This document shows positions 29,873 through 56,282 of a stretch of 64,000 bases of DNA, piece after piece. Below the pieces are notes generated by a model, which worked only from the letters and a program-made list of their open reading frames with translations, made no database searches and had not been told where the DNA came from. Source of the stretch: an uncultured delta proteobacterium (GTDB taxonomy: Bacteria; Myxococcota_A; Polyangia; Polyangiales; Polyangiaceae); assembly GCA_963696385.1 (NCBI GenBank), contig CAVOKF010000004.1:1-64000 (forward strand), read 5' to 3'. How positions within the stretch are numbered: the stretch's first letter is position 1; the number at the start of each line of letters is the position of its first letter. Position numbers and translations under genes: made by a program.

Positions 29873-29874
29873 CG

Positions 29875-30744: not shown

Positions 30745-30752
30745 GGGACTTG

Positions 30753-35798: not shown

Positions 35799-36265
35799 CC
35801 AAGACCGTCCGTCGCGGCCGCGTACGGCTGCTGCCCTACGTCGATCCGGCCCTCGCTCAGCGCGTCGACCAATTCTGTGCGGCGACCGACGTGACGGTGA
35901 GTGCTGTCGTCGCGGCCGCTATCGGGCAGTACCTCGATGGTACGAGCGACGCGACGCTCGTCTTGCGACGCCTGGACCGGCTCGGCCGCGCCGTCGCTCG
36001 CAACCAACGAGACGTGGAGCTGTTGTCGGAAGCGTTCGCCGTGTTCGTACGTCTCTGGTTTGCGCATACGCCGGCGATCCCCGAAGCTGCGAAGGGCTCC
36101 GTACGCGCGAGCGCCGAGAGCCGGTACCGGCAATTCGTCGAGCACGTCGCCGAACAGTTCTCCGGCGGCCACCGCTTTCTCGACGACTTGCCGCACGAAG
36201 CGATCGGCGACGAAGGCGAGCTCGCCGCGGTGGCCGAATCCGCCGCTCTACAACCCCAAAAGTGA
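35795..36265 (+). CDS. CopG/ribbon-helix-helix protein of Tn4371-type ICEs
   Basis: SAVVAAAI..., RRLDRLGR, EAFAVFVRLWFAHTP, RYRQFVE; ATGA-coupled to traG. Confidence 0.8.
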   Translation: MTKTVRRGRVRLLPYVDPALAQRVDQFCAATDVTVSAVVAAAIGQYLDGTSDATLVLRRLDRLGRAVARNQRDVELLSEAFAVFVRLWFAHTPAIPEAAKGSVRASAESRYRQFVEHVAEQFSGGHRFLDDLPHEAIGDEGELAAVAESAALQPQK

Positions 36266-36432: not shown

Positions 36433-38136
36433 GTGGCCGCTCTCGCGCCCGCCTACGTTCCCCGTCGCCCGACCGAAACGGTCCTGTACGGATTGGTGCG
36501 CGAGAATCTGGAATCGTTTCTCGCGTACGCGCGCGAGAACTACGAGGGAGGGCTACCCCGCTACGTGGAAGCGGAGCTGCGCGCGTACTTGAATTGCGGC
36601 GTATTTGCGTGCGGATTTACGCGCTGCCACTGCGACTCATGCGGCCACGACTTGCTTGTGGCTTTTTCGTGCAAGGGAAGATCTCTCTGCCCCAGCTGCT
36701 GCGGCAGGCGTATGGCCAACACGGCTGCCCACTTGGTCGATCGAGTCTTGCCCGACGTCCCTGTGCGGCAATACGTTCTGTCGCTCCCGTACGAGCTTCG
36801 CAAGCTTGCGGCGTTCAAGGCCGACGTTCTCACAGCCCTGGGCCGCATCTTCGTCGAGGCCATCTTTGCCCGCTACCGCGCTCGCGCCCAGCGCGAGGGC
36901 CTCGAGGATGCGCAGTGCGGAGCGGTAACCTTTGTTCAACGCTTCGGCAGTTTGAATCTCAACGTGCATTTTCACGTGTTGGTGCTCGATGGCGTCGTCA
37001 CCCGGGACCCGGACCGTCGTGTGCTCTTTCATCCGGCGGCCGCTCCGACGCCGGTCGAGCTCGAGGTGCTGGTGGACCGCGTGATGAACCGTAGCGTGGC
37101 GTGGCTGCGCCGCCACGGCCATGTGCAGGACACGCCGCTCGAAGAGCGCTCGAACGAGCCGCCGGCGCAGACTGCCCTCGACGCGTGCGCGGACATCGCC
37201 ATGGGCCGCGGCACAGTCGCAACCTTGTCGAACGACGACGACGGGTCGAAAGACGATGACCGCGAGGCGCGGCCCGACGGGCTCGTCGGCGCGGTCGAGC
37301 GAGACGGGTTTAATGTGCATGCCGGGGTCCGGATCGAAGCGGGCGACCATCTGGGTCGCGAACGACTGGCGCGCTACGGCGCGCGACCTCCGCTCTCGCT
37401 CGAGCGCCTTCGTAGGTTGCCCGGCGGGCGGGTGGCCTATCGACTCAAGTACGTCCGTCGCGGCCGAGGCAAGTACAGAATCATGACTGGCCTGGAGTTC
37501 ATGGCCCGCTTGAGCGCGATCATTGCGCCGCCTCGGTATCCGTTGGTGCGCTACAGCGGAGTGCTCGGGCCACACTCGAGCTGGCGACGCGACGTGGTGC
37601 CGAAGCCGCGCGAGACGGCTCCCGCCTGCCACCGCGCGCCTACCCCACCGCTGAGCCCGGCCAAGCCGGTCACCGGCGCAATGACGCATCCGGGCTCGGC
37701 GCTTCCCGGGGCGGCGGCGCCGACAGCGGGCAAAGTCGAGAGTGCTCCGGCGCCGGCCGCCAGTTCCTCGACGAAGACGGGTCTGTCCGCGCTCCCCATC
37801 TTCGCGCATCGGGGCGAGGTCATCCCGCTCACGCCGAATGTGCTTGCTGTCAGCCACTGGGAACGGCTGCTCGGCGGCGCCATCTACGCGGCCTCGCCGC
37901 GCGTGGACTGGCCCACGCTCTTGAAACGAACGTTTGACGTGGACGTTCTGCAATGTCCGAAGTGCCACGGCCGACTGCGGGTGCTCGCCGTGATCACCGA
38001 GCGCGAGCCGGTGCGCCAGGTCCTCGCCCATCTCGGCCTGCCGACCGAGGCGCCGCCCGTCGCCCGGGCGCGCGACCCGACTGACGACGCGCAAGACGCC
38101 GAGCCGTCGGATCAACTCGAGCTGCAGCTCGCGTGA
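36433..38136 (+). CDS. IS91-family (HUH, rolling-circle) transposase with N-terminal zinc-binding domain
   Basis: CG...CxxC...AFSCKGRSLCPSC, RQYVLSLP, NLNVHFHVL (HUH), ERLARYGARP, RYSGVL, CPKC. Confidence 0.92.
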   Translation: MAALAPAYVPRRPTETVLYGLVRENLESFLAYARENYEGGLPRYVEAELRAYLNCGVFACGFTRCHCDSCGHDLLVAFSCKGRSLCPSCCGRRMANTAAHLVDRVLPDVPVRQYVLSLPYELRKLAAFKADVLTALGRIFVEAIFARYRARAQREGLEDAQCGAVTFVQRFGSLNLNVHFHVLVLDGVVTRDPDRRVLFHPAAAPTPVELEVLVDRVMNRSVAWLRRHGHVQDTPLEERSNEPPAQTALDACADIAMGRGTVATLSNDDDGSKDDDREARPDGLVGAVERDGFNVHAGVRIEAGDHLGRERLARYGARPPLSLERLRRLPGGRVAYRLKYVRRGRGKYRIMTGLEFMARLSAIIAPPRYPLVRYSGVLGPHSSWRRDVVPKPRETAPACHRAPTPPLSPAKPVTGAMTHPGSALPGAAAPTAGKVESAPAPAASSSTKTGLSALPIFAHRGEVIPLTPNVLAVSHWERLLGGAIYAASPRVDWPTLLKRTFDVDVLQCPKCHGRLRVLAVITEREPVRQVLAHLGLPTEAPPVARARDPTDDAQDAEPSDQLELQLA

Positions 38137-38202
38137 ACGACCGGCCCCGAGAGCGGCGCGCCGATGCGGCGCCGCGCGGGCGACGTGCGCTTTGAATCTG
38201 TT

Positions 38203-38312
38203 CAAATCGGTTCGCCGATTCAGCGATAACGAACGCCCCTAAGACGCGATATGTTTCCGCGCCCGCTTCCGCGGCTCTTCGTCGACCGACGCACTTTGGG
38301 CTTACTACTCGC
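38203..38312 (+). repeat. ~110-bp dif-like cassette-boundary element, copy A1
   Basis: CAAATCGGTTCGCCGATT...AACGCCCCTAA-GACGCG-ATATGTTTCCG...CTACTCGC. Confidence 0.9.
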
Positions 38313-39798
38313 TGTGACGAGCGGCGAATCCGTGAACGTGAACAGCGTGGACGAGGTGCCCGATTCGGCCTGGTTCACCAACCGACTCGGTGTCCGCCCG
38401 ATGAGCCTCGAGGAGCTGCGGCTGAACGAGTGCAAGAAGGAAGTGCTCCTCGACCCGGATCACACCCCGGACGGTGGGTGGCTCATCGACCAGGGCAAGA
38501 CCAGCGGGTCGACGCCGGGCTTTCGCATGACCGTGCCCGGCAAGGGCAAGTTCCTGGTCAAGGTCGAGGCCACCGGGCTGCCCGAGCGCCAAGTGGCGGC
38601 CACGGTGATCGGCGAGGCCGTCTACTATGCCGTCGGCTACAACGCGACGTGCGAGCAGGCACTGTGGGTCCGACCGTCGATCTTCACCCTGAAACCGGGG
38701 TTGAAGGCCGCACACGGCAACTTCGGGGATTACTACGACTTCGACAAGAAGGCGCTCGACGATCTGTTCGCCAAGTCCAACAAGCACCGCGGGCTGCTTC
38801 GCATCAGCGCCTCCGCGTGGGTGCCGGGATATGTCCTGCAGCAGTTTCGCTACGAGGGGGTGCGAGGCGACGATCCCAACGACGTCATTGCGCATCAGGA
38901 TCGTCGCGAGCTTCGCGCCGCGCGACTGCTCACGGCGTGGATCGATCACTTCGATGCGCGCGAAGGCAATTCGCTCGACACCTGGTTCACCGAAGTGAAA
39001 GGCGGTCCGCCCGACGCGTCGCCCGGTCACGTCGTCCACCTTCAGATGGGCACGAGCGCCGCTCTTGGATCGGTGTGGGACTGGGACCCCATCTCACGAC
39101 GGCTCGGCTACGCCTACGTCGTCGATTGGGGGGACATCGCGGTGGATTTCTTCACGCTGGGGGCCACCACGCGCGTCTGGGAACAGATCCAGAAGGTCCC
39201 GGGCCATGAGATGTTCGGCTACTTCAACGTCAAAGACTTCGATCCCGAGCGGTGGAAAAACGAATACCCGAATCCGGCGTTCTCGCGGATGACCGAACGC
39301 GACGGCGCGTGGATGGCGCGCATCCTGGCGCGGTTCACGCCGCCCATGGTCCGAACCTTGGTCGAGATGGCGAAGCTCGACGACCCAGCCAACACCGATT
39401 ATTTGCAGAGCGTCCTCGACGGCCGGTTGGCCAAGATTGTCGATCGCTACCTCACGCGGGTGTCGCCAATCGCCCAGGTGCGGGTCGATGGGCCGAGCCG
39501 GCTCTGTGGAGTCGACCTCGCGGAGTGGCGCGGCTTGCGCGATCCGTGGGCGTTTCGCTACGAGGCGCGGCTCCTTTCCGGACCGTGGTTGAACGTGGAA
39601 AGGCAACCGGGGGCACAGATCTGCGTGACGCTGCCCCACGTGGCTGCGGACGGCGGTGTCCCGGACGACGCGCCCGCGCGCTACGTTCGCGTGCGCATCC
39701 AAGACGGGGTGGCCACCGGACCGCTCGTGGCGCATCTGTACGATTTGGGGCCGGTGCGGGGCTACCGCCTGGCCGGCCTCGAGCGGCCCGATCGGTGA
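38313..39798 (+). pseudogene. 5'-truncated paralog of the 40931-42670 kinase-like exported protein
   Basis: Begins near NVNSVDEVPDSAWF directly after A1; lacks the ~85-aa N-terminus of the paralog; an ATG inside A1 (38251) is in frame. Confidence 0.75.
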
Positions 39799-39897
39799 CA
39801 TCCCGGCACCCCCCGCGCGAGGCGATCCGATTTTGCCGGTGGGTGCGGGCGCCAAGAGCCGGCCCGCGAGGCGCGCGGGTGGGGGTGTTGGCCGCTC

Positions 39898-40767
39898 TCA
39901 GAATCGTCCCTGCAGCGTCAGCGAACCTCCTCCGGGCGCTGGCGCGACGCCCACCCATACGGCCGGAGCCTCCGCTTTGTGCCGATGAAGGTGCGGCACG
40001 AGAATCCCCACGGCCGATCCTGCTAACGATCCCGCAATGACGTCGCTCGGGAAGTGCTCGCCCGCGCGGACGCGCTCGTAGCTGACGAACGCGGTGAGCG
40101 CCGTGGCGATGCCGAGCGTGATCCACGGGCGAGGCGAGCGGGGCGATCGCACGAAGGCGAGGTACGTCGCCGTCGCGCCGATGGCCGAGACGCCTGCGGC
40201 GTGCCCGGAGAAGAAGGAAAGGCCGAGATCGGTGGAGTTGCAGCTGGCCGGCAGCGTGGTCGCGCCGTTCATCTCGCAGTTCTTGTAGTCGATGGGACGG
40301 GGCCGGCGAACGGCGATCTTGGTGATGTCCGTGAGTGTGAGCGCGAGCGATCCGGACTCCGCGTACATGAACGCGTCGACCAGCAATGCGTCGGTGCCGT
40401 CGCGAAAGCCCGACAGAACGGGATCGACCACCGCGAACCCGATGGCCGTATACAGGCCGATGTTCGAGTACGTCGCCGCGTGCGGATCGATCGTCTGCGT
40501 CACCGCGATTCGGTCGAAAAACAGAAGTTGGCTCACCGAGGCCGTCGGGACTGGGGGTTTGATCTCGCCGGTCCCGAGAACCAGCCCGAGCAAGCCCGCG
40601 AACCCGAAGCCCGTCACCGTCATCACGCCGTCGGAGACCGGGTCGAGGGAGAAGTGCTGTCCTTCCTCGAGGGGCGGGGAATCGGCCCGTGCGACGGACG
40701 CCGACAAGAGGACGGCTCCCAGAAAGCCCAGAGCCACCTGGCGTGACGATGTCGCAAACGTCCTCAT
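39898..40767 (-). CDS. PAP2 family phosphatase
   Basis: KIAVRRPRP, SFFSGH, ERVRAGEHFPSDV. Confidence 0.9.
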   Translation of the reverse strand: MRTFATSSRQVALGFLGAVLLSASVARADSPPLEEGQHFSLDPVSDGVMTVTGFGFAGLLGLVLGTGEIKPPVPTASVSQLLFFDRIAVTQTIDPHAATYSNIGLYTAIGFAVVDPVLSGFRDGTDALLVDAFMYAESGSLALTLTDITKIAVRRPRPIDYKNCEMNGATTLPASCNSTDLGLSFFSGHAAGVSAIGATATYLAFVRSPRSPRPWITLGIATALTAFVSYERVRAGEHFPSDVIAGSLAGSAVGILVPHLHRHKAEAPAVWVGVAPAPGGGSLTLQGRF

Positions 40768-40930
40768 GGTGCTTGAGACGCTGGCGGCACCGGATTGTGA
40801 CGTCTCCGAAAGCCAATCGTGTGCCCACCCGATGGGCACGACGATCGCCTGCACCGCGTGACGCGCCGGCCGCACCGCGCCTCGCGCCGGACGCGAGCGG
40901 CCGCGTCCGATCTCGGCGAGGCGGGACACC

Positions 40931-42670
40931 TCAGGGCTCCGGCCGCTCCACCCCCGCGAGAAAGTACCCGCGTTTTGGGCCGAGATCGTACAAGGCCGCA
41001 ATGAGCGGCGCCTTCGCGACACCGTCGTCGAGGATCACTCGAACATACCGCGCGGGGGACGCGTCGGGCGGACCCCCGTCTCCGGCCACGTGCGGCAGAC
41101 GGACGCAGATTTCGCCGCCGCCATGCAACTCGACCGGCAGCAGGGCCCCGTTCGGCGCGCGGGCGGTGTAACGGAAGCGCGTGACATCGCACACGGCGCG
41201 CGCCTCGGCCAGGTCGACTCCGCAGAGCCGGTCGAGGCCTTCGACGCGCAGCTCGCCAATCGGCGAAAGCCGTGTCAGATACCGTTCGAGGATCCGTTCG
41301 AGCCGTCCTTCGAGCACGCGCACGAGATGCTGCGTGTTTCTCGGATCCGTGAAACGTGCCATCCCGGCAAACGCGCAAACCGCCTCGGGCGTGAAGCGCG
41401 CCAGGATACGAGCCATCCATGCCCCGTCGCGCTCGGTCATGCGGCTGAATGCCGGGTTCGGATACTGCATCCTCCATTGGTCGGGCACGAAGCTTCGGAC
41501 GTCGAAATTCCGGAACAGCTCGAATCCGGGATCGCCGAGCGGTCGATCCCAAGGGCGTGCCGGAATTCCGAGCGCCAAGAAGTCGGCTGCCATGTCGCCC
41601 CAGTCGACGATATACGCGTAGCCGAGCCGTTCGGTCACCGGTACGTGCCCGTAGTCGGGGCCGAGCGCATCGCTCCAGTCCAAATAGTAATGAACGACGT
41701 GACCCGGCGATCCGTCCGAAGCGACGTTCGGGTCGGCAAACCAAGAGTCCATGCTGTTGGCGTCCCGAGAGTCCCAATGATCGATCCACGCGGCGAGCAA
41801 GCGCGTGGCCCGCAGTTCCCTTCGATTCTCGTGGGCGATCACGTCGTTCGGGTCGTCCGGTCTCGTCCCGTCGTAATGAAAGGGGCCCAGAAGGTGCCCC
41901 GGAATCCATGCCGAGGCGCTCATCCTCACGAGCCCGCCACGCCGCGCGCAAGCCGCCAGGACCTGGTCGAGCGCTTTCGCGTCGAAGTCCTTTTCGTCTT
42001 CCAAAGTGCTGTGCCGGAAATGGAGGCCGGGGCTGAGCTTGAGCGCCGACGGCTTGAAGTACACGACTTGCTCGCAGCTCGCGTTGAAGCCGGCGGCGTC
42101 GTAAATCGCGGCGCCCACCACGGTCGCCGCGGTCGCAAGCTCGGGCTGCGCGGTCCCGTCGGCCTTGAACAGGTACTTGCCTTTGCCGGGGATGTTCACC
42201 CGAAACCCCGGAGTCGCGCCGTCCATTTTGCCACGGTCGATGACCCAGAGGCCGTCGGGCGGGTCCTCGGCGATCAGCAAGGACCGGTCGCACGCACCGA
42301 TCGGCACATCGCCCGGGCCCGGAAGGTGGCCGCCGCGCCGATTCGTGAACCACGCCGAATCGGGCACTTCGTCGACGCTGTTGACGTTCGTGGCCTCTCT
42401 CGCGACGGCCAGGGCGAGCGCGTCGGACATGGGGCGGAGCAGGACGTGATCCATGGCCGTCCAGATCTCGGGCACATCGATCGGCACCGGGGCACAAGAG
42501 ACGTGCCGTGGATCGCGCGCCGTGGGCTGGAGGCGGCAGGGCAGCGTTACGGACTGGAGATCCGAGTCTCTGTCCATCGGGGGGCGCAGCGCAAAGCGTC
42601 GCTCGGTCGGCATGCACGCCGACAGAGCGAGCGCCACGCACGCGAAGCGGACTTCATTCACGTTCGACAT
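40931..42670 (-). CDS. Exported lipoprotein, possible atypical kinase-like fold
   Basis: Lipobox LSAC; GATPGF...YLFKAD...PELATAA; HENRRELR...HWDSRDANSMD. Confidence 0.6.
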   Translation of the reverse strand: MSNVNEVRFACVALALSACMPTERRFALRPPMDRDSDLQSVTLPCRLQPTARDPRHVSCAPVPIDVPEIWTAMDHVLLRPMSDALALAVAREATNVNSVDEVPDSAWFTNRRGGHLPGPGDVPIGACDRSLLIAEDPPDGLWVIDRGKMDGATPGFRVNIPGKGKYLFKADGTAQPELATAATVVGAAIYDAAGFNASCEQVVYFKPSALKLSPGLHFRHSTLEDEKDFDAKALDQVLAACARRGGLVRMSASAWIPGHLLGPFHYDGTRPDDPNDVIAHENRRELRATRLLAAWIDHWDSRDANSMDSWFADPNVASDGSPGHVVHYYLDWSDALGPDYGHVPVTERLGYAYIVDWGDMAADFLALGIPARPWDRPLGDPGFELFRNFDVRSFVPDQWRMQYPNPAFSRMTERDGAWMARILARFTPEAVCAFAGMARFTDPRNTQHLVRVLEGRLERILERYLTRLSPIGELRVEGLDRLCGVDLAEARAVCDVTRFRYTARAPNGALLPVELHGGGEICVRLPHVAGDGGPPDASPARYVRVILDDGVAKAPLIAALYDLGPKRGYFLAGVERPEP

Positions 42671-42713
42671 GATGCCCGAAGGGGCCGCTTCGTGACGATG
42701 CGGTAGCGACGCT

Positions 42714-42823
42714 CAAATCGGTTCGCCGATTCAGCGATAACGAACGCCCCTAAGACGCGATATGTTTCCGCGCCCGCTTCCGCGGCTCTTCGTCGACCGA
42801 CGCACTTTGGGCTTACTACTCGC
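42714..42823 (+). repeat. ~110-bp dif-like element, copy A2 (identical to A1)
   Basis: Direct sequence comparison. Confidence 0.9.
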
Positions 42824-43231
42824 TCCCGACGATGACGAGACCGACCGCTGCGACGAGTCCGACCACGACCATGATCGGGTTGTCCAGTGCGGCGCCACAC
42901 CCTCCCAGCATCACGATCCCGCCGAAGAAATAGCAGCCGTTGCGGATCAGCTTCCGTTGCTCCGTGTTCATCGGCCCTCCGAAACGATGCCAACGCTTAT
43001 CGTCGGCCTTGTCAACGGCGGCAGATGCGGGCGCGGGGACCCGAGGTTGGCACCCGCGTGCCCCGTCCACTCGCACGCGCGGCACGCCAGCGAGCAACTT
43101 GCGAACGACAACAGCCGGTCCACTTCGGCAGAGTACGCGTTGCCGCGATTATCGCGCGCGTCGTCCGCCACGCGCCCTCCGCCAGTCATCGCCGTTGACG
43201 TCGCCCGGGCGATCGGCCGACCATTGGGGCG

Positions 43232-44464
43232 ATGGGGGATGAGGAGAGGCGAACGGTTTGGATCCTTGGCGCGGGCTTCAGTCGATCGCTCGGCGGCCCG
43301 CTATTGCCCGACCTGCTTTCATCGGCGACGAATAATTTCGTTTCCTCTCTCTATCATAAAAACAAATTCATTGGGGGCCCCCCCGAGGAGCCCGATGACG
43401 TGTACCGCCGCGCGGCCCTCGCGGTGCGCCGCTTGTACGATAAATACGGGGACACAGCTGACCCCGGAATCCGCTTATGGGAGAATGCGGAAGAGTTTTT
43501 AGACCAGCTAGACGCCGCGGCCGAAAACGAGAGCGCTGCCAGTCGGATTTTCCGACCGATGACCTCCGAGCTCAATAATGCCCCCTGGATTTCCGGAGTG
43601 GAGACCCCGGACCTGCGCGACGCGGCGCGACGGCTCGTTGCCGCAGCGTGTTGCGCGTTCCTGCACGGTGCGAATACGAATGAAGAACGCTGGCAGCCGT
43701 ACCAGGCGTGGGCCGCCGACCTAACGTCGTCGGACACGGTCGTGACGTTCAATTACGACCGGGTGTTGGAAACCCTCGGAGGGTTTGACGTCGTGGTGCC
43801 TGCGCCGCCGGAGGTACTCACCTCGCAGGTCGTCCCGCTCGTGCCGCCGCTAGGCGCTAAGCCGAAAGTCTTCAAGCTACACGGCAGCGTCGATTGGCGC
43901 CGTGAACTAGAGAAGCCGGTAAGATACTTGCTAGCGTCGCCCGAATACGCTCTTGAATGCGATGGCGTAAACATCGGAATCGCTACACCGGGCCCAACTA
44001 AGCGTCTAGCGACTCAGGAATTGAGCCGATTGTGGACCGATGCGTGTGAGCATATTCAGCGAGCCGAGGTAATTGTCTTCGTTGGGTACCGCTTCCCGCG
44101 AACCGATGCGGAAGCACGCGGAACGCTTTTGAAGGCGATCAGGGAAAACAAGTCCCCTCATCTCGAGTTGCACATCGTGCTCGGTCCGGATCGGCGAATC
44201 CCGGACGTCGTCCGGCTTCAACAGCTGCTCCGCTACAGAATGGCGAGCGCGGGCCGGAAGGGGCAACGAGTTTTGCCCCCAAGCGCCCAGAGGATGACTG
44301 CCGCGAAGCCCGCAAACGAGACGCGAAATGATTTTCGGCTAATGACCCACGCCCTCTATGCGGAGGACTTCTTCACCGTGTGGGATCGCGACGTCTTGTG
44401 GCCCCCATCAGAGGGGGTAAGCTCAAACGATCGTGTGACCATCGAGCCGTTGCCGCCCGACTGA
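43232..44464 (+). CDS. SIR2-like domain protein (putative NADase defence effector)
   Basis: WILGAGFS, VTFNYD, FKLHGSVDW, IVFVGYRF. Confidence 0.85.
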   Translation: MGDEERRTVWILGAGFSRSLGGPLLPDLLSSATNNFVSSLYHKNKFIGGPPEEPDDVYRRAALAVRRLYDKYGDTADPGIRLWENAEEFLDQLDAAAENESAASRIFRPMTSELNNAPWISGVETPDLRDAARRLVAAACCAFLHGANTNEERWQPYQAWAADLTSSDTVVTFNYDRVLETLGGFDVVVPAPPEVLTSQVVPLVPPLGAKPKVFKLHGSVDWRRELEKPVRYLLASPEYALECDGVNIGIATPGPTKRLATQELSRLWTDACEHIQRAEVIVFVGYRFPRTDAEARGTLLKAIRENKSPHLELHIVLGPDRRIPDVVRLQQLLRYRMASAGRKGQRVLPPSAQRMTAAKPANETRNDFRLMTHALYAEDFFTVWDRDVLWPPSEGVSSNDRVTIEPLPPD

Positions 44465-44477
44465 CGGTGTCCGGGCG

Positions 44478-44566
44478 GCGAGTAGGCGGCGCAAAGCTTG
44501 TCGGCCGACGAAGAGACGCGGAAACCGCCGCGGTCACATAAAAGGCCTTTGGGGCGCTCGTTGTCA
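44478..44566 (-). repeat. dif-like element, inverted partial copy B1
   Basis: Reverse complement TGACAACGAGCGCCCCAAA-GGCCTT-TTATGTGACCG...CCTACTCGC. Confidence 0.85.
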
Positions 44567-44876
44567 TTGAAAGCGCCGTCCCAATTGAGCGCACGGAAAT
44601 CGTCCCCTTTGGCAACGACATCCTGGCCGGCACGCCCCGGGCGATGCCCTACAGCGGGGTAAGCCGGATGAAGTTTCAGGCGAATGCCGTGGCTGGCCGA
44701 AAGGAGAAGTCTGTCTTGAAGCCCAACTGCACGTTGAGTCTCGTCCCCTCGCCCGAGGGCGTTCTCGCTCGCTGCTCGGAGAAAAGCACCTCGTCGCACT
44801 TGACGGTCACCGATTTGGCTCGTTCTTCGGTGTTGTTGGATGGCGAAGCGCAAGCAAATTCAATCGACCCGGGACT

Positions 44877-46058
44877 TCACTGGCATTCAGCTGAGTTCGG
44901 AGGATTTGCGCCGGTCGCGCTGTAGGACGCACATATGGCCGCTGAGAACGCGCCCGTCACATGGTCAACTTTGACGGTGTTGATTATGTTCTGCGCATTC
45001 CAGGGGCTTAAATTCAGATCGAAGGTCCCTATGATTTCCGATGCCGTTACAGTTGAGACTGTGACGGTACCGCTTACGGACTGCTCGCATGCCGTTGGAT
45101 TGTCGCTTTGGTCGTAGGCGGCACCGTAAAACGCCCCCGCTCCTATCGTCGCCCCCGCTGAGGTTAGGACGTCGAACGTGCCTGGCGTCAACGATGAGTT
45201 TGTTACAATGTCGAGGTACAAGACAGTTTGGTTGGGGGAGGGCCCGCTGTCGTCTTCCGTCCAGGCGTTTCCAGGTCCGCCATCTGGGTTTAATGCGCAT
45301 AAGTCGGCGAGGTTTGCGATGGATACGTTGGAGAGAACGATGCTCGTCACGTTGGTATCGGGAGCTAACCCGGGATTCCCCACGGGGACATTGCCGGCGA
45401 AGGCACTCTGGATGATCAACTCCTGCCCGCCGATCGTGCCAGTAGCGCTGTTCGCGGAGGCTTCGCTCGATCCGTCGGATGCATCGGCGGCATCCGGTCC
45501 TGCGTCACAATTCGGCTCCAGAATGTACGAACATTCGCCGCTGCTCGGAATGCACGAGCCCGGCGTCAATTCGCAAGTCGTTGGCGGAGTCACGCACGCG
45601 GTGGATCCCCCTGTCGCTGTCGTGCAGCCCCCGCACGGATCCTTTACTGTGCAGGTAGTCGCCTCACCATCCGCGTCGCTGGCGTCCGGGGTGCCATCGA
45701 TTACATCGGGCTCGATTACGTCCAATACAGTCGCATCGCGATTGGCGTCTGCTTCCCCGTCTGTGTCCCCATCTGCTTCGCCGTCCGTCGTTGCATCCTT
45801 GCCCCCGTCCAATTCACTCGACAACGAGCTTGAACTGGTCGTTGAGCTTGAACTCGACGACGAGCTTGAAGGTTCAGGGGGCGGCGGAGGCGAAGGGCTT
45901 CCGCAAGCAGCTAGGACCTCAAAATGTGTGGTCACGACCGCGAGTGCGGCGATTCGCCACGGTTCCAGCCTCACGAAATGCCTCCCGCTGGAGCTATCGA
46001 CGCGGAAAACCGACATTGGCGCCAAGATCGCACAAAGTGGACCAGGCTCAGGTGGCAC
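44877..46058 (-). CDS. Hypothetical lipoprotein, Ser/Asp-rich linker and Cys-rich region
   Basis: LAAC lipobox, poly-Ser, DAG repeats; visibly more AT-rich than the flanks. Confidence 0.55.
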   Translation of the reverse strand: MPPEPGPLCAILAPMSVFRVDSSSGRHFVRLEPWRIAALAVVTTHFEVLAACGSPSPPPPPEPSSSSSSSSSTTSSSSLSSELDGGKDATTDGEADGDTDGEADANRDATVLDVIEPDVIDGTPDASDADGEATTCTVKDPCGGCTTATGGSTACVTPPTTCELTPGSCIPSSGECSYILEPNCDAGPDAADASDGSSEASANSATGTIGGQELIIQSAFAGNVPVGNPGLAPDTNVTSIVLSNVSIANLADLCALNPDGGPGNAWTEDDSGPSPNQTVLYLDIVTNSSLTPGTFDVLTSAGATIGAGAFYGAAYDQSDNPTACEQSVSGTVTVSTVTASEIIGTFDLNLSPWNAQNIINTVKVDHVTGAFSAAICASYSATGANPPNSAECQ

Positions 46059-46442
46059 GCTTGCAACAAAATAAGTTCAACAATATTGGAAAAATCGTGC
46101 GAGCTCAGACTTCAGACGGTCCGAGAGCGGACTTGGCGGAGCCTGAATGTGGCACACAAAGCTACATGTGGCGCTGGGCGCTACCTTGTGGCTCCGTGCA
46201 CCACACGTGTGCGGGGGGGCAGTGTCCGCTACCTGGCTTTGATCGGCCACATTCCCCGCTGTACTTCGGGCATGTATCCGTTTCGTACGGCTCCCGAGCT
46301 CTCCCAGGCCATCCCCGGCCCCCCTGTCCTGGCTCCTTGGGCTGTCCGCCGGCTTCAGGCAGCGGCGCAATAGTCATGATGAAGGCCGCCGAGCACGGGG
46401 ATGGCCTCGACCGGGCCAGCATACTTGGCCAAACGGGACTCT

Positions 46443-46563
46443 CAAATCGGTTCGCCGATTCAGCGATAACGAACGCCCCTAAGACGCGATTAAGACGCGA
46501 TATGTTTCCGCGGTGGCTTCCGCGTCTCTTCGTCGACCGACGTGCTTTGGGCTTACTACTCGC
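46443..46563 (+). repeat. dif-like element, copy A3 with an 11-bp internal duplication
   Basis: TAAGACGCGAT is tandemly duplicated in the core. Confidence 0.9.
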
Positions 46564-46640
46564 CAGCGAGCTGCCGTGCTGCTCGTCGAGCGGCTTGCAA
46601 ACCTGCTTGCCACGTCCCCGGACCTGCCGGAGCTACGACC

Positions 46641-47420
46641 GTGACGGTCTTGCGAAACGGCAAAGCGCCGCGCTGGAGCGAGCACGAGGCGTCGAGTGAG
46701 CACTTCGTCGGCGGCATCTCGCCCCTCTGGATGTTCGACTACCAGCTTCAGGGGCTCTTCTCAGTCGTGGAACTCGCGCGAGCCAGGAGTCGAGAGGAGC
46801 CCCACCTCTACGGCGACGTTCTGCGGCGCGCCGCGGAAGTGGCGCTCATCGGCGCGCTCGGCTTCTTCGAGGCGTTTTGCAAACACCAGTTTGCGGCGCT
46901 TTTGACGCTGCATGCCCCTCTGCTCGTCGACTTCGCCAACCGGCGTCAGGAGGCGAGCCTCCGGCTCTCGGCACTCGCTTCAGCCGCCGGAGAACTCGAC
47001 GTCAAGATCGGCTTCATCGTCGCCGAGTCGTACGACTTCGGATCGGCCAAGCAAATCAATGGACTCTTCCGCGATCTCCTCGAGTGCTCGCCGTTGCCGA
47101 AAGATGAGGGGGACGAGCTCGACGCCATCCTTCGCAAGCGCCACCTCATCGTGCACCACGGCGGTATTGTTACAACTGAATCGGCTCGGGCAAAGGCACC
47201 GGTCCTTCCGTCTGGCCAGGCGTTTCGAGACGTCGTCGGGGTCGAGCCCGACGAGTACCACGACATCGCGGACTTCCTGCGGCTCTCGGCCGTCAAGGTA
47301 GCCGTCTGCACGGTGCAAGCCCTCAAGCGTCGCACGCGCGACCTATCTGATCTTGCCGTCGACCGACAGCAAGACGTGGAGCTTCTGCTCAGGGCCGTGT
47401 GGCATCAGCTCGACGCGTGA
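46641..47420 (+). CDS. HEPN-domain protein (putative RNase)
   Basis: FFEAFCK helix, FGSAKQINGLF, RHLIVH (RxxxxH); start approximate. Confidence 0.65.
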   Translation: MTVLRNGKAPRWSEHEASSEHFVGGISPLWMFDYQLQGLFSVVELARARSREEPHLYGDVLRRAAEVALIGALGFFEAFCKHQFAALLTLHAPLLVDFANRRQEASLRLSALASAAGELDVKIGFIVAESYDFGSAKQINGLFRDLLECSPLPKDEGDELDAILRKRHLIVHHGGIVTTESARAKAPVLPSGQAFRDVVGVEPDEYHDIADFLRLSAVKVAVCTVQALKRRTRDLSDLAVDRQQDVELLLRAVWHQLDA

Positions 47421-47449
47421 ACGAGCCCCCTCGACCTTTGGGCCCTGCT

Positions 47450-47683
47450 CTACTTGCGTCGCTTTCGTCCAGGGCCTGCAGGCCATGAAACCTGCTTGGA
47501 GCGTTCGAGCCATCCCTCGGTGACGGCCTCGCGCACCTTCACCCGCAGAAGCTCCTCGGCGGCCTCGGTGCGGTTCTTTCCGAACAGGCCGGTCTGCACC
47601 AGTGCGTCGAGCGCCGAGAGCACCTCGGGCGTCGTCGACAGGTGCAGTTTCTTGGTCCCGACCGAGTTGGGCCCGCGTGCCAT
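47450..47683 (-). CDS. Small ribbon-helix-helix-like regulator
   Basis: LHLSTTPEVLSALDALVQTGLFGKNRTEAAEELLR. Confidence 0.6.
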   Translation of the reverse strand: MARGPNSVGTKKLHLSTTPEVLSALDALVQTGLFGKNRTEAAEELLRVKVREAVTEGWLERSKQVSWPAGPGRKRRK

Positions 47684-47715
47684 GATCCAAGTAGATCCTG
47701 ATCTAGGATCTTGAT

Positions 47716-48163
47716 ATGCTCAAGCCCGTGAGCGCCGATTTGGCCGGCCAGAGGGTCGGATCCCTCGACGATGCGCGGACTGCGTTGGTGCTGCCGCCAC
47801 GTCCCGAACCGCGATCTGCGCGCAGAACGCTGCGCGTCGGCAGCCGCACGCTCACCGTCACGCCGGTCTTCGACACGTACTGGCGCTTCGCCTGCCAGCG
47901 GCAGGAGGTCTTCCACCGGCGAGCCGCGGGCGACCCCCCCGCCGTGGACGGACGATCCCATTCTTGGCGGGCACCGTTTCACGAATGCCTACCGCGCTTC
48001 GGATCGGGTGAGCCAGTTCCTCATCCGCCACGTGCTCTACGCCGGCAGTCAGGACGAAGAGGAGGTTTTCTTCCGTTGCCTGCTCTTCAAGATTTTTAAC
48101 CGGATCGATACGTGGGAGCACCTTAGGCTTCACGTCGGCGAGGTGCGCTGGAACAGCTACTCT
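47716..48163 (+). pseudogene. 3'-truncated DNA base-hypermodification (aGPT-Pplase1/5hmdU-kinase-associated-like) gene
   Basis: FDTYWRFACQRQEVF...PWTDDPIL...FTNAYRASDRVSQFLI...LLFKIFNRIDTW; cut at element A4; frameshift in a C-run at ~47935. Confidence 0.7.
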
Positions 48164-48210
48164 CAAATCGGTTCGCCGCTCGGTGACAACGGAAGCCCCT
48201 AAGACGCGAT
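48164..48210 (+). repeat. dif-like element, left-half copy A4, interrupted by IS4
   Basis: CAAATCGGTTCGCC...GAAGCCCCTAA-GACGCG-AT, then IS sequence. Confidence 0.85.
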
Positions 48211-48591
48211 CATAGGTAGGATCTTTATTTCCCGAGTGATCTCGATCACTTACGTGCATAGTGCACGAATTGGGTAGTCAAAGGCATCGGGGATTCTCTA
48301 GACGCTGTTGTGAGACAACGCGAAAGGAGACCCCCGATGCACGGATCAAACAGTACACGCGCCGGAGTCGGCGTGTATGCGAAACGGCTTACGGAAGTAC
48401 TCGGCGAGGAGCAGGTGACCGCGATCGCGAGACGTAGCGGCTGGCTACGGCGAGTGCGCAAGGTGATGCCGCTGGCGATGGTCGTGGCGGTGCTGTCGAC
48501 GCTCGGGTCGGGCCACGCCAAGTGGTTGGCCGATATTCTGCGGACGTTCCGGAAATTCGCGGGCCTTTCGCTGCGATATAAGCCCTTTCAC
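48211..48591 (+). mobile_element. IS4-family left end and transposase 5' fragment
   Basis: CATAG start; ORF from 48337 with IARRSGWLRRVRK...LADILRTF...YKPFH; cut at A5. Confidence 0.65.
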
Positions 48592-48702
48592 CAAATCGGT
48601 TCGCCGATTCAGCGATAACGAACGCCCCTAAGACGCGATATGTTTCCGCGGGGTCGTCCGCGGCTCTTCGTCGACCGACGCACTTTTGGGCTTACTACTC
48701 GC
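48592..48702 (+). repeat. dif-like element, copy A5
   Basis: Near-identical to A1. Confidence 0.9.
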
Positions 48703-49034
48703 CGAACAGAATCCACGGGCGGTCGAGACTATGCTTCGTGAGCAGCGCGACCACGTCGGTGCATTTGCTTCAGCTTCAGCGCAGCCATGATCGCCTGATA
48801 CCACTCGCTGCCGTACTCGATGCCCGTGTTGCCTTTCTTATCCGAAGACCGGAACGACTTCAGATTGCCGCCGCTTGCGTCGGTGAGCAGGTTGCTGAAC
48901 GCCTCGGCCAGCTTCGCGTCGCGGCTGTCGTGGCTGATGAACACAAGCGGCTTGGAGGACTGAACGAGCGACGATTCGCCGTTCGCCGCCTCGTTTGTCT
49001 TCCCGTTTCCCGCTTCCTGCTTCCGCTTCGCCAT
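48703..49034 (-). pseudogene. 3'-truncated TIR-domain gene
   Basis: VFISHDSRD, FRSSD...GIEYGSEW, DVVALLTKHSLDRPWILF cut at A5 just before the catalytic Glu; one frameshift. Confidence 0.75.
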
Positions 49035-49151
49035 GCCCGCCGCCCCCGGGTGCCGTGATCCCGCACGATCGCACAACCGGACGCATCGGGTAAGCCCTGG
49101 CCAAGATCGGTTCTCGGCATACCCGTCAAGTGTTCAGTATGCTCCCGCCAA

Positions 49152-49345
49152 TGCCCGACAACACCCGTCCGCCGCGCAACCTCCACATCGACGACCAGCC
49201 GAACCTCGGCACCCGCGCGCTGATGACGGCCGTCGACGAGCTGGCCAAGGCGCACCGGCTTGCCGGAGCCCGCGTCGCCTACAAGCGCAACGCCAAGGGC
49301 GAGCACGTCGTCGCGGTCATCTTCACCGGCTTCGAGCGCACGTAG
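49152..49345 (+). CDS. Small hypothetical protein
   Basis: Compact ORF with host-like codon usage; no motif recognised. Confidence 0.35.
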
Positions 49346-49498
49346 CGGCCCGAATCCGTATTCCGGTGCGCCGGAGGCGAAACCCGGTTTCGCCATGCGG
49401 CCCGCATCGGCGCGCAGAGCCCTGCAGCCAAGATAGGCGATCGCTCCGATCGGAACCCGGGTTCCGGTCCCGGTTGGTCCGCCGACGGCCGCTCCGAC

Positions 49499-49577
49499 TG
49501 ACAACGAGCGCCCCAAAGGCCTTTTATGTGACCGCGGCGGTTTCCGCGTCTCTTCGTCGGCCGACAAGCTTTGCGCC
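49499..49577 (+). repeat. dif-like element, partial copy B2, cut by IS66
   Basis: Identical to B1 from TGACAAC to TTTGCGCC. Confidence 0.85.
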
Positions 49578-49638
49578 GTAACCGTCCGGCCGGGCCCGCA
49601 CTTGATTTAGGGGCAGAAAGCGCGGTGCGATCGGGGGC

Positions 49639-49959
49639 ATGGGACGCGAGCGTCGGTCGCGAGTCTGGTGGTCAAGCCGAGTGGCGCGTTGGCGGCGCAG
49701 CGGGCTTACGGCGCGGCAATTCGCCGAGAGCGAAGGGCTTTCGGTGTTCTCGCTTCGGTGGTGGTCGAGCCAGTTGGCTCGTGATAACCGTGCGGAGCAC
49801 GGTGCGTCGGCGATCGAGCCGATCGAGATCACCGTCGAGGGGCGTCAGGCCGGCCGCGAACTGGTCGAAGTCGTGGTCGGCGCGGCGACGATCCGCTGCG
49901 AGCGGGGGACGGACGTCGGATACATTGCGGCGCTGGTTCGTGCGATCGCGGGTGCATGA
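49639..49959 (+). CDS. tnpA: IS66 accessory protein TnpA
   Basis: WRRSGLTARQFAESEGLS...LRWW HTH. Confidence 0.8.
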   Translation: MGRERRSRVWWSSRVARWRRSGLTARQFAESEGLSVFSLRWWSSQLARDNRAEHGASAIEPIEITVEGRQAGRELVEVVVGAATIRCERGTDVGYIAALVRAIAGA

Positions 49960-50321
49960 CGGTGTTCGGTTTCTCGCCTCACGTTCGCGTGTACCTCGCG
50001 TCGCAGCCGGTCGACATGCGTGCAGGCCACGACAGTCTGTTCGCGATCGTGAAGAGCTGGGACCTGAATCCGTTCAGCGGGGACCTGTTTGCGTTCGTTG
50101 GGAAACGACGAGACCGGGTGAAGATTTTGGTGTGGCACCGCGGGGGATTTTTATTGGTCTACAAGCGGTTGGAAAGAAATCGATTTCGGATCCCTGCGAT
50201 CCAGCCGGGAACGCGGACGGCGATGCTCGATGCGACGCAGCTGGCGATGTTGCTCGATGGCATCGACGTCCAACACGTTCAACGCCCCGCGCTGTGGCAG
50301 CCTCCGGGTCTGGCGCGCTGA
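49956..50321 (+). CDS. tnpB: IS66 accessory protein TnpB
   Basis: PVDMRAGHDSL, FAFVGKRRDRVKIL, YKRLE, LAMLLDGID. Confidence 0.92.
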   Translation: MTVFGFSPHVRVYLASQPVDMRAGHDSLFAIVKSWDLNPFSGDLFAFVGKRRDRVKILVWHRGGFLLVYKRLERNRFRIPAIQPGTRTAMLDATQLAMLLDGIDVQHVQRPALWQPPGLAR

Positions 50322-50428
50322 GCCCCGTCGCGGCCCTGTGTGTCCATTGGACACTTTGTCGCTGAAATCGTCGTCGGCCCCCACGCTAAGCCTTTTAATC
50401 TGCGCGGCGATGGTGCACGAAAAGGATC

Positions 50429-52033
50429 GTGGTTGATGCGCGAGACGTCCGCATCGCGAAGCTTGTGGAGCTGCGCAAGCGCGCCGAAGAGCGTGAGCGA
50501 CAACTGGGCGAGATCGTCGCGCAGCAGCAGACGCTGATCGCTGCGCAGCAGCAACTCATCGCCGAGCTGCAGCGTCGACTGTCCGAGCAAGATGCGCAGC
50601 AGAAGGCGCGCGCCGAAGAGATGAAGGCCGAGATCGACCGGCTGGAGCGGCAACTGTTGGGCCCGAAGACCGAGCGGACCCACGTTCCGCCGATCGACGC
50701 CGAGCTTCGCAACACCGAACCGATGACCGACGAAGAGCGCGCGCGCCGTCGCGAAGAGATTGCACGCAAGCGACGCGAACGCGCACTCGCGAAGAACGCC
50801 GCGATGGCCGTCGAGCAGGTCGAGTACCCGGTACCCGAATCGATGAAGCCGTGCGCTCATTGTGGCGGCGTGCATGCGCGAGCTCTCGAGCCCGAGCAGA
50901 GCACGACGTACGAGTACAAGCCGGGTCACTTCATCCGTCGTGTGCACAAGCGGCAGAAGCTCGCATGCAGCTGCGGCCAGTCCATCGTGACGGCGCCGCC
51001 GCCTCCGAAGCTCGTCGTCGGTGGACAGTACGGCTTCGGGTTCGCCGCATTCCTCATCGTGGAGAAGTGCGCCGACTCGATTCCCATTCATCGCATTGAG
51101 AAACGATTCGGCCGACTTGGGATCCCGATCTCGCGCAGCACGATGAACGATCTCGTTCACAAGGCTGCCGAGATTGTTCGACCGCTCGTCGCTCGACTGC
51201 AGACGCGAATCGCGGCTCTCGAAGTCGTGCTCGCCGACGAGACCTCGATGCGCTTGCAGGACCGTCCCAAGCGCGGCTTTGTCTGGGTGTTTCACGGTCA
51301 CGATGAAGTCAGCGGCGGCAAGCTTGTTCTGTATGCCTTCGCCGTCGATCGAAGCGGCGACACGCCGGCGAAGATCCTGGGTGGCACTCGCGGCACTCTC
51401 GTGGTGGACGGATACACGGGGTACAACCAGGTGACCGACCCGCTCGGACGCGCGCGCGGCGGATGCTGGAGCCACATGCGCAGAAAGCTCTTCGAGGCGC
51501 GCTCCACCCGTGCGGCCGAGGACATCGACCCCGCGCTCGGGATCATCCGCGAGATCTTTCGTGTCGAACACGACGCGACCGAGCAGAAGATCGTCCGCAC
51601 TCCGGCCCATCTCGAGCTGCGAAATGCGCGTAGCGCTCCGCTGGTCGAGCAATTCTTTCAGTGGGCCGAACACAAGAAGGTCGAGGTCCTTCCGAAGGGC
51701 CCGCTCGGCGAGGCGCTCGGTTACGCGATTAACCAACGCGCTCGACTCGAGCTTTTCTTGTCGGATCCGCGTATTCCGATGCACAACAACGGCTCAGAGT
51801 CCCGCTTACGCGTTATTGCTCTGGCTCGCCATACGTACCTTTTCTTCGGACATCCACTCGCGGGCAAAAACTTCGCGGGGCTCTACTCGCTCGTCGGCTC
51901 CTGCATCGCCAACGAAGTCGAGCCGACGGAGTATCTCACCGACGTACTTGCGCGAGTCCGCGACGCAACGACCGACGAGCAGCTCGACGCGCTGCTACCC
52001 GATCGGTGGGCGCCCCACGGTCCAGCGCCCTGA
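50429..52033 (+). CDS. tnpC: IS66 transposase TnpC
   Basis: Coiled coil, CAHCG, ADET, VVDGYTGY, CWSHMRRK, NNGSESRLR, LLPDRW. Confidence 0.93.
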   Translation: MVDARDVRIAKLVELRKRAEERERQLGEIVAQQQTLIAAQQQLIAELQRRLSEQDAQQKARAEEMKAEIDRLERQLLGPKTERTHVPPIDAELRNTEPMTDEERARRREEIARKRRERALAKNAAMAVEQVEYPVPESMKPCAHCGGVHARALEPEQSTTYEYKPGHFIRRVHKRQKLACSCGQSIVTAPPPPKLVVGGQYGFGFAAFLIVEKCADSIPIHRIEKRFGRLGIPISRSTMNDLVHKAAEIVRPLVARLQTRIAALEVVLADETSMRLQDRPKRGFVWVFHGHDEVSGGKLVLYAFAVDRSGDTPAKILGGTRGTLVVDGYTGYNQVTDPLGRARGGCWSHMRRKLFEARSTRAAEDIDPALGIIREIFRVEHDATEQKIVRTPAHLELRNARSAPLVEQFFQWAEHKKVEVLPKGPLGEALGYAINQRARLELFLSDPRIPMHNNGSESRLRVIALARHTYLFFGHPLAGKNFAGLYSLVGSCIANEVEPTEYLTDVLARVRDATTDEQLDALLPDRWAPHGPAP

Positions 52034-52416
52034 ACCACTGGGGCGCAGCGCAACTCCCGCAATCCCCGAACGCGTCGCGCGTCGTCACGTCGATGCAGAG
52101 TGTCGCCCGAGTCCGCGACGCGACCCCAGCACGACGTGCCGCTATCCATACGAGCGCAGCGCCTCGCCTCTGCCCCCCTGAACCACTGGCCTGAAGTCGC
52201 CAAGCATGGTCGCGCTCTGTTGCGGCCGCGGCAACGACGTCAACGCGACGATGCTCTTGGCGTGCTCGCCAACAATCGCGACGAGTACTGGGACAAGAAG
52301 CTCGCCGCCGATACTTGGCAGGGGCCTCATCGCGGGAAAGGCCCGCCCCCTGAACCATTCTTGGACTCAGGTCAACAGCGGGGCGCGCCGGACGCTTACG
52401 TGGAAAGGGTGCAGTT

Positions 52417-52906
52417 GTGACCGATGTAGAAGCTACAGCAGCCGCGAGAATCGCACTTCGGTGTCTCATCGAAGAGACAGCTTCAATGGCTGCCGCAAAC
52501 AGCATGACGCCCGAGGCCCTGCGAGGCATCGCCTATTATGACATGTCACGCGATGCCCCGATTCTTGCGCTGGACGCATTTGGAAAGGCAACACAGGTAG
52601 TCACCTCGCTTCCTGAGTTTTTGGCGCGTTTTGACGCCCAGGACGTCACGCGTATTGTCATACAGTTTGTATACGAATATTACGCCCGCAGTAACAGCAT
52701 CCTTTACGACGATGTTGTCTTTGAAGCCGTGTGGTCTGACTTCACGGCAGAAATCCAAGAGCCCCTGTGGGTGACGCGAGGAGTCGCCAACGTCAGAAAC
52801 TTCACGAGCGATAACCACGCACTGGCGCTGGGGGACGGCGTAGCGATCCGAGGGCGAAGTAACGACGAGCTCACCGCCCTGGGTTTTAGCGGTGCCGTTC
52901 TGGACT
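52417..52906 (+). pseudogene. 3'-truncated hypothetical gene, possibly the N-terminal part of an Apea-like HEPN protein
   Basis: More AT-rich ORF whose frame runs into element C; family assignment weak. Confidence 0.4.
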
Positions 52907-53016
52907 CAAATCGGTTCGCCATTACAGCGACGGCGGAAGCCCCTAACGGGTTATATGTGACCGCCGCGGTTTCCGCGGCTCTTCGTTGATCGATACGCTT
53001 TCGACCGGCTACTCGC
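52907..53016 (+). repeat. dif-like element, divergent copy C
   Basis: CAAATCGGTTCGCC...GAAGCCCCTAA-CGGGTT-ATATGTGACCG...GCTACTCGC, same 110-bp length. Confidence 0.88.
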
Positions 53017-53218
53017 TCGCAAGAAGACGCGCAACGTGACGAAGGGGAAAGGCGGTACGATGGTGGTGCGCGGGGTCGCACTCGCCCTCATCGTGACGTC
53101 GAAAACCTTCCGCAAGCTGCGCGGTTACGTCGCAATGCCCAAGCTCGTCGCAGCCCTCCGCGCTCACGACGCCACGCTCAGCTCCACGTCCGTTGAGGAC
53201 TCGACGAAGACCGCGTAA
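53017..53218 (+). pseudogene. IS256-family transposase C-terminal remnant
   Basis: TRNVTK..GGTMVVR...KTFRKLRGYVAMPKLVAALRA. Confidence 0.65.
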
Positions 53219-55525: not shown

Positions 55526-55665
55526 CTTTTCGTTATGGCGTTCAACAGGTTATCGATGTCGTGGATCCACGCCCTATGTCCGTGGATCCATATTTTCCTG
55601 AAATAGTTTTGCCATCTTAACTCACGCGTGGATCCACTCCTTTATCTTGCCCTCCGCTTTGCTCT
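55516..55665. promoter_or_regulatory. Putative oriT region
   Basis: TATCTTG^CCC at 55643-55652 resembles the IncP nick site TATCCTG^CCC; four GTGGATCCA(C) palindromes; lies between divergent relaxase and mobC. Confidence 0.6.
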
Positions 55666-55763
55666 CGGGAACGACACATTCTGACCTGACTCCGTTTTGA
55701 CTTCGTAGTCTGTCGTAGTTACGTATGGGACGGATTCCGGAGCCAAACGGAGACAAGTGCCCA

Positions 55764-56282
55764 ATGCAAGCACGACAGAAGATTCGGTGCGACGCGATCG
55801 ACCGCGCGCGGATGTTGCTCGAGACGGTAACTACACCCACGATTGAAGAAGTCACCAAGTCGGAAGCTGTCCGAATGCTGCTTCCGCAGATCCGCGAGGC
55901 ACGATCGAAAGGGTACGGTCTTGAAGCGATTGCCAAGATGCTTTCCGAGAGCGGTGTAACGGCGAGTGCAAGCCTCGTCCGCGATCTCTTGACGGAGGGC
56001 AATGCCCCTCTTGTGTTCGGGCGGGGCGCCAAAGCGAAGTCGGCTCATGTCCGGAAGTCACCTGTGCGGGGAGTGCGCGTCCAGCCGCGACACGAACCGT
56101 CGTCGGGCGCGTCAGACTCGAAGACGGATCCGGAAGCCACTCGGGCGACGACGCCGGAGCGAAGCCTTCGTCCAGCCGCGACAGGCGACGGCGCCACCCC
56201 CGTAGTGAAGTCCCCGTCGGTCGGACAGTCTGTCGTGCGTCGGTCGACGTTCGTGCCGCGACCCGATACCGAGAGCATCTAA
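55764..56282 (+). CDS. mobC: MobC-like relaxosome accessory protein
   Basis: KSEAVRML..QIREARSKGYGLEAIAKML; C-terminal FVPRPDTESI; upstream of mobD/mobE. Confidence 0.6.
   Translation: MQARQKIRCDAIDRARMLLETVTTPTIEEVTKSEAVRMLLPQIREARSKGYGLEAIAKMLSESGVTASASLVRDLLTEGNAPLVFGRGAKAKSAHVRKSPVRGVRVQPRHEPSSGASDSKTDPEATRATTPERSLRPAATGDGATPVVKSPSVGQSVVRRSTFVPRPDTESI

Follow-up and report, generated by a model that had tools for sequence, protein, structure and literature searches.

An ISCR-like transposase and its repeat

The window, a stretch of 64,000 nucleotides at the start of contig CAVOKF010000004.1 from an uncultured member of the Polyangiaceae, contains a transposase gene of the insertion sequence common region (ISCR) type, followed by an array in which cargo genes alternate with copies of a 110-bp repeat, here called the miniature. 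The transposase (36433-38136; features are on the plus strand unless stated otherwise) has 567 residues and comprises a zinc finger and an HUH domain (PF14319 and PF04986) with one catalytic tyrosine in the sequence RERLARYGAR; in this tyrosine it agrees with its relatives in G099, G119, L102 and L014. A single catalytic tyrosine (Y1) is the ISCR pattern (PMC10288648). The best NCBIfam model, ISCR_clade_Ia, scored 283 bits against a cut-off of 925, which indicates a different clade; the element belongs to the IS91/ISCR family and to none of the named clades tested. A homologue at 92% identity is present in a Polyangiaceae bacterium. Upstream of the gene, where a terIS would be expected, copies share sequence from about 36322 and diverge before that point, and no cleavage tetranucleotide could be assigned there.

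Eight whole or partial miniatures lie within 38203-53016, with left ends (CAAATCGG) that start at 38203, 42714, 46443, 48164, 48592 and 52907, and right ends (CTACTCGC) that finish at 38312, 42823, 46563, 48702 and 53016. Miniature 1 (38203-38312) is the transposase's own oriIS end, and miniature 2 (42714-42823) is identical to it. Miniature 3 (44478-44587, minus strand) is inverted and of a divergent type, miniature 4 (46443-46563) has an 11-bp duplication at its core, corresponding to an IS4 target duplication, and miniature 5 is represented by a left half (48164-48210) broken at the core by IS4. They are followed by miniature 6 (48592-48702), the partial miniature 7 (49497-49577), which has lost its right end to an IS66-family element (49578-52399), and miniature 8 (52907-53016). 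A profile search of the contigs of the genome holding the window (G000), counting matches at E 0.001 or better, gave 95 matches grouped in islands, 40 of them with both ends. Near-identical copies were present in only one of 60 relatives (G003), and a pattern scan of metagenomes returned two half copies only. Miniature 7 has also lost its left part, whose place is taken by the end of a different element (49100-49496), and this junction recurs in other copies in G000 and G003.

The spacer that follows the transposase gene runs directly into the repeat in seven of its eight G000 copies. The right end of the repeat lies 176 bp past the transposase stop, where an ISCR oriIS is expected about 170-250 bp downstream, and one right-end variant matches the ISCR1 oriIS (sequence from PMC13023784) at 14/20 bases by our count. 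The left end is set by a conserved internal site, GCTTTG-AAT-N-GTT|CA (38189-38202). Among 37 related transposase ends, 15 have a motif resembling this site after the stop codon (a pattern count made without a shuffled control), and miniatures begin at the internal cut in G000, G099 and G119. In G099, a genome of another genus, the transposase is 59% identical and there are 41 repeat matches; solo copies start at the internal cut and arrays lie behind the transposase, an architecture shared by G119 and G177. The repeat is thus the shed oriIS end of the ISCR-like element whose transposase gene lies at 36433-38136, as with the miniatures of IS801.

Other identities do not fit. The ends of the miniature are dissimilar and no repeats flank it, so that it has neither the terminal inverted repeats nor the target duplication of a miniature inverted-repeat transposable element. 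The gene adjacent to the array encodes an HUH transposase and the cargo is cut within genes, in contrast to an integron. A longer autonomous parent between repeat halves was considered and rejected, as the halves are split by IS4-type and integrase-plus-IS91-type elements and not by a parent gene. A conserved hairpin across the whole element was also rejected, since folds vary between variants (compared without shuffles).

Gene cuts and junction rules

The initial annotation had listed six genes as cut exactly at the ends of the repeat. In all six, the alignments with longer homologues stop at the element, and in none does the similarity end well away from its termini. The kinase-like gene right of miniature 1 (38313-39798) is 5'-truncated and belongs to a family of chromosomal type; it has no Pfam match and the label is that of the annotation. 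An intact copy on contig C7, with about 90 additional N-terminal residues, aligns from 38314 at 92.6% over 2.5 kb, placing the cut exactly to the base. The same precision was obtained for the IS4-type element at 48211-48591, the first 381 bp of 1476 bp, which is cut by miniature 6: 15 other copies in the genome match through 48591 and then continue differently. Three cuts are exact to the codon. All three homologues of the HMUDK_hel gene (PF18723; 47812-48163, 3'-truncated, with a frameshift near 47940) align to 48163 and extend more than 200 residues beyond; both homologues of the 3'-truncated TIR gene (48703-49034, minus strand), which is frameshifted near 48770, align to 48704; and the alignment of the IS256 remnant (53017-53218), the last 66 residues of a 424-residue transposase, starts at 53018. 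The 3'-truncated open reading frame (ORF) at 52417-52906, to which no function is assigned, aligns through residues 10-161 of 163 with residues 3-154 of a 426-residue protein, which places the cut within two residues. No TIR homologues were found in searches of 120 family and 300 phylum genomes, and PF13676 misses the copy in the window.

All six cuts fall within genes, and the junctions indeed disregard gene boundaries, unlike those of integron cassettes. The accompanying proposal that the cuts were themselves the act of capture was not supported: the IS4 copy first landed in the core of miniature 5 and was truncated to 381 bp by miniature 6 only later, and sister copies of cargo are progressively trimmed. 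By sequence, many of the cuts appear to be trimming after capture. The 1476-bp IS4-type element favours the core of the miniature, where left ends are located in 9 of 17 cases and right ends in 4 of 10, and several miniatures keep the 11-bp duplication without IS4 (e.g. 46481-46502).

Trimming from either side is apparent where the same cargo occurs more than once. In a G099 cargo present in three copies, two right junctions are 24 bp apart and two left junctions are 150 bp apart, and each copy is intact where another is cut. For one G000 cargo that is truncated by a right end of the element, G003 has a longer, intact form. Elsewhere, two left ends enclose a 29-bp piece taken from the interior of an intact sequence, and G099 contains a head-to-tail dimer. 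The independent left and right cut points in sister copies indicate that each end was joined alone, repeatedly.

The base to the left of the element is C or T at 91 of 104 junctions in G000 and G003 stretches and at all 32 in G099 stretches, and the base to its right at 82/91 and 30/32, respectively; these are distinct junctions selected by pattern, of which a few may be false. The initial annotation had noted left flanks ending in ACTCT, GACT or CGCT as a possible target motif; the pyrimidine at the outer flanking base stood, while the longer motif did not. In the intact homologues, by raw counts that include a few artefact rows, the base after the left cut is C or T in 24 of 31 cases, and the base before the right cut is unbiased (18/34; p = 0.07 relative to the left-cut figure). 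Had left and right junctions been the halves of a single insertion, C or T should precede right cuts in about 90% of cases, against the 18/34 observed. Of the 40 full G000 copies, 20 were informative in having one flank with an intact homologue, and none of these was a simple insertion, as no flank rejoined its other flank. An exact test of 56 x 65 left and right flanks found no true pair. Four fuzzy pairs among 65 junctions were explained by the dimer (2) or by 10-base near matches (2), an apparent empty donor site in G003 proved to be an intact gene, and local repeats in G099 suggestive of circle re-integration did not fit.

Proposed mechanism and its alternatives

We favour a reading, to which we assign an overall probability of about 0.68, in which shed oriIS ends, joined to other DNA one end at a time, trim what the arrays have captured. 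The 110-bp miniature is released from the oriIS end of the ISCR-like rolling-circle element by means of a second cut site, some 65 bp past the transposase stop, as the anatomy of the locus shows. To judge from the junctions, the single-tyrosine transposase may act in trans and on one end at a time, joining either end to other DNA with few sequence requirements. Right junctions would arise from origin-initiated events that yield one-ended circles or deletions, and left junctions from cuts at sites resembling the internal one, or from an insertion that later recombined with a copy nearby. Pieces of foreign or chromosomal DNA would reach the arrays as circles that recombination within a miniature rescues, and would then be trimmed from both sides, leaving genes cut at the ends. 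The single tyrosine may be the reason for such half reactions; in contrast, clean insertions into G099 miniatures are made by an IS91 element that has two tyrosines and carries an integrase gene (11 left-half junctions, not all independent).

Several points weigh against this reading. The junctions in G000, G003 and G099 lack an IS91-type tetranucleotide target, and neither a circle nor an empty donor site was found. The formation of left junctions is indistinguishable from insertion plus recombination. Just one long cargo has a near homologue, and the match extends over 2513 of 4401 bp, leaving contiguity with a donor unproven, and two transposase relatives at 72% identity had no solo miniatures (in fragmented assemblies searched with one query). 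No ISCR protein has had its mobility shown experimentally, according to PMC9376610, and the transposase in the window is known from sequence alone. The contigs of four public runs likewise contained no circle joint or back-joint; they had varied loose ends at 38312-38313 and a high repeat depth.

The core of the miniature resembles a dif site. In miniature 1, an 11-6-11 core at 38232-38259 matches the arms of a candidate host dif at 10/11 (left) and 6/11 (right) positions. A matrix built from four complete family genomes, each with one CATAA-N6-TTATG site, scored at least 15 bits in 7 of 37 transposase ends and in none of the control stretches (0/28 and 0/36). Its best match in G000 is C3:50569-50596 (minus strand), a single-copy site with the same arms in G003. 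To the right of this site, GGGNAGGG octamers, which we take to be KOPS (FtsK-orienting polar sequences), point towards it in 55 cases versus 9. Sequence makes this a candidate, unproven host dif; its XerC-side arm is unusual, common to G003 and similar in G029 and G014. The XerC-side arm of the G000 miniature matches its own candidate dif at 10/11 positions and that of G099 at 7/11, and the G099 miniature matches its own dif at 10/11 and that of G000 at 6/11. A third dif type, found both in the dif and in the element, occurs in another family, where the own match is 9/11 in G635 and 8/11 in G639 by our counts. The element core thus resembles the host's own dif in four hosts with three dif types. 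The XerD-side arm matches at only 5-9 of 11 positions across G000 miniatures; degenerate arms are usual in XerC-first sites (PMC9226527). The same core is also a target. In G099, insertions of a 2.5-kb IS91 element that encodes a tyrosine recombinase and a two-tyrosine transposase lie where an arm of the dif-like site borders the spacer (L113:8898-11519, equal to G099:C3:2728898-2731519, and further sites in this genome); G000 keeps only the ends of this element (C6:48184-48819 and C2:101491-101536), at the opposite arm.

The presence of such a core raises the possibility, unlikely in our view, of a platform run by two enzymes, in which the HUH transposase makes circles of cargo plus miniature and the host XerC/D integrates them at resident dif-like cores, producing ordered arrays behind the transposase. 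The matrix scores relative to the 64 controls and the host-tracking XerC-side arm in G000, G099, G635 and G639 are consistent with this, as are a pair of Xer-like genes in the G000 genome (scores of 314 and 276 bits, below the cut-off) and the polarity of the G099 arrays, where 18/22, 15/15 and 5/5 matches run in one direction. However, G000 neighbours are in the same orientation in 38 cases and opposite in 26, no miniature lies close to the candidate dif, the single copy on C3 being 430 kb from it, and 30 of the 37 transposase ends fall below 15 bits on a matrix from four genomes. In addition to the poor XerD-side match, linkage does not drop at the core among 44 haplotypes; mosaics switch along the whole element, with one switch mapping to the core edge. 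It is similarly doubtful that a myxobacterial clade of Y1 ISCR-like elements constitutes a two-enzyme shuffling platform, in which the HUH enzyme would cut arbitrary DNA at both ends of a 100-110-bp module, in turn one or the other, and XerC/D would stack or remove the resulting circles through the host-matched dif of the module. If true, this would be a natural route for spreading dif sites to gene-blind positions and for creating dif-bounded modules. Mosaic haplotypes whose linkage decays with distance would also be produced if miniatures inserted cleanly and RecA recombination between copies then shuffled or deleted the flanks, the repeats acting as passive homology patches. This finds further support in the left-junction targets that continue with C or T, and in the report that most genomic IS801 fragments arise by reorganisation and serve as recombination homology (PMC3189936). 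We nevertheless consider it improbable, since all 20 testable copies would need to have been reshuffled, and since the predicted excess of C or T before right junctions was not observed.

The favoured reading, trimming by shed ends, has its closest precedents among the IS91-like elements. IS801 sheds right-end miniatures of 229, 360 and 679 nt in 26% of events (PMC3189936); like the repeat described here, these are oriIS-bearing right ends, shed by early termination at an internal site and acting in trans without target duplication. They were, however, trapped as plain insertions that end at tetranucleotides and do not accumulate (PMC3189936), whereas the window element has one fixed internal site, about 95 copies, no plain insertions among 20 copies, and a dif-like core. 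ISCR1 and ISCR28 are likewise Y1-type HUH elements with oriIS downstream of the gene, in which variable DNA, often truncated transposases (429 ISCR1 cases), abuts oriIS, cargo lies between two oriIS, and circles are rescued by recombination (PMC6218425, PMC13023784, PMC12772301). Truncated transposases are the commonest neighbours of ISCR1 at oriIS (PMC6218425), so cutting at the right end is established for such elements. In the window array, by comparison, the ori end has a precise boundary on its left as well, which joins new DNA; many ends are solo, there is no link to integrons, and the ISCR1/ISCR28 passages of the same three papers mention no dif-like site. IS91 shares the HUH rolling-circle family, one-ended transposition and the lack of target duplication, but has a Y2 enzyme, a CTTG/GTTC target, a defined terIS and clean insertions (PMC13181058), where the window element follows a single-pyrimidine rule. 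The attachment sites of IMEX (mobile elements that integrate by exploiting Xer) and plasmid Xer sites resemble the core in being degenerate copies of the host dif on a mobile element, with arrays built by successive integration (PMC9226527); in the present case, no integration at a chromosomal dif was seen, and the boundaries are HUH-type ends rather than the dif site.

Outside this group, the pdif modules of Acinetobacter also combine a degenerate host dif on a mobile element with arrays of successive integrations. Integron cassettes form a similar layout, a recombinase-like gene followed by repeat-delimited cargo, but the window array has no attC or IntI, its cargo is cut mid-gene, and it lies in both orientations. 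Relative to the literature searched, the fixed internal second end, the evidence for independent trimming by both ends and the host-tracking dif site are new; that search, whose scope excluded the main ISCR reviews, most subscription papers and supplements, returned no IS91/ISCR end with a dif site. DNA capture by ISCR elements has so far lacked experimental demonstration, and the arrays offer more than 250 natural junctions with measurable rules, while a 110-bp substrate and one enzyme provide the basis for a direct assay. The host-tracking dif site ties together two systems that move DNA and suggests an origin for dif-bounded modules.

Cargo, defence genes and surroundings

Between miniatures 1 and 2, the truncated kinase-like gene is followed by an intact PAP2 gene (39898-40767, minus strand, start approximate; PF01569) and by a full-length paralogue of the kinase-like gene (40931-42670, minus strand; 65% DNA identity to 38334-39791). 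The initial annotation had described the cargo as mobilome DNA, which is not supported for this block: its family occurs in 25 of 30 further genomes of the genus, and it has diverged from the resident copy under purifying selection. Most of the differences between the two are silent (dN/dS 0.135), which, together with the chromosomal type of the block, points to a recent arrival from a sister lineage. The kinase-like proteins (38313-42670) have no match in Pfam, NCBIfam or PADLOC; most genomes of the genus carry several paralogues, often next to a PAP2 gene.

The assignments of SIR2, HEPN and TIR proteins held, and the SIR2-like and HEPN genes are full length, making up two of the five intact genes assigned in the window apart from insertion sequences. 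The SIR2-like protein (43232-44464), whose full length was established by comparison with homologues, scores 23.8 bits with PF13289, just below the cut-off, and no known partner gene is adjacent. The HEPN-fold protein (46641-47420) stands alone, 77 bp from an oriIS end. It has an invariant R-x4-H and a HEPN fold, the top 13 rows being HEPN-type at Z 7.3-9.0 (moderate for a helical fold); Pfam and PADLOC missed it at their cut-offs, and Foldseek gave no match for its model. The remaining ORF (44877-46058, minus strand) is lipoprotein-like, with paralogues in the genome and no PADLOC match, and is not defence-like.

The two full-length genes might suggest that the array is a dedicated anti-phage gene bank with cargo selected for defence, an explanation to which we give little credence. 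Two of three SIR2_2 genes lie in array segments that make up 2.7% of the genome (post hoc p = 0.002), so that a modest enrichment is possible. One G099 segment between miniatures (G099:C3:5227961-5238335) contains type I restriction-modification and PD-Lambda-5 genes. Defence-like cargo did not emerge as a rule, however. Outside the window, 139 ORFs were called with a gene caller of our own in 64 inter-element segments of G000; after 37 multi-copy ORFs were dropped, 102 were scanned, of which 46 had a Pfam match and 7 a PADLOC match. Only five were defence- or toxin-antitoxin-like (one SIR2, one Uma2, Phd, PIN and ParE), a figure without a core-genome baseline. Of 113 ORFs in G099, 91 were scanned, with 11 PADLOC matches; six of these lay in one block, the only defence-like pieces among the 91, and the others were kinases and reverse transcriptases. 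The TIR and HMUDK genes are broken, and much of the cargo is metabolic or lipoprotein, while the 56 of 102 ORFs without a Pfam match may hide further defence genes. Defence genes would then be occasional survivors of trimming rather than its purpose, and in this respect the arrays are ordinary: like many mobile islands, they hold a small number of such genes.

The array is flanked by a VirB4/coupling-protein block (18194-36196) on one side and a relaxase/ParA block (54350-57646) on the other, and so occupies the place of cargo in a conjugative element. A frameshift splits the coupling-protein gene, and several of the frameshifts in the window could be assembly errors. Long inverted repeats (81-91%) pair positions 1-2844 with 15635-18293, and tandem repeats are present at 13943-14155 and 23832-24191. 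Elsewhere in the genome, a 2.9-kb cargo with both of its miniatures is duplicated at 99.7% identity (G000:C6:1-4146 and C7:2160-6306), the C6 copy lying at a contig end.

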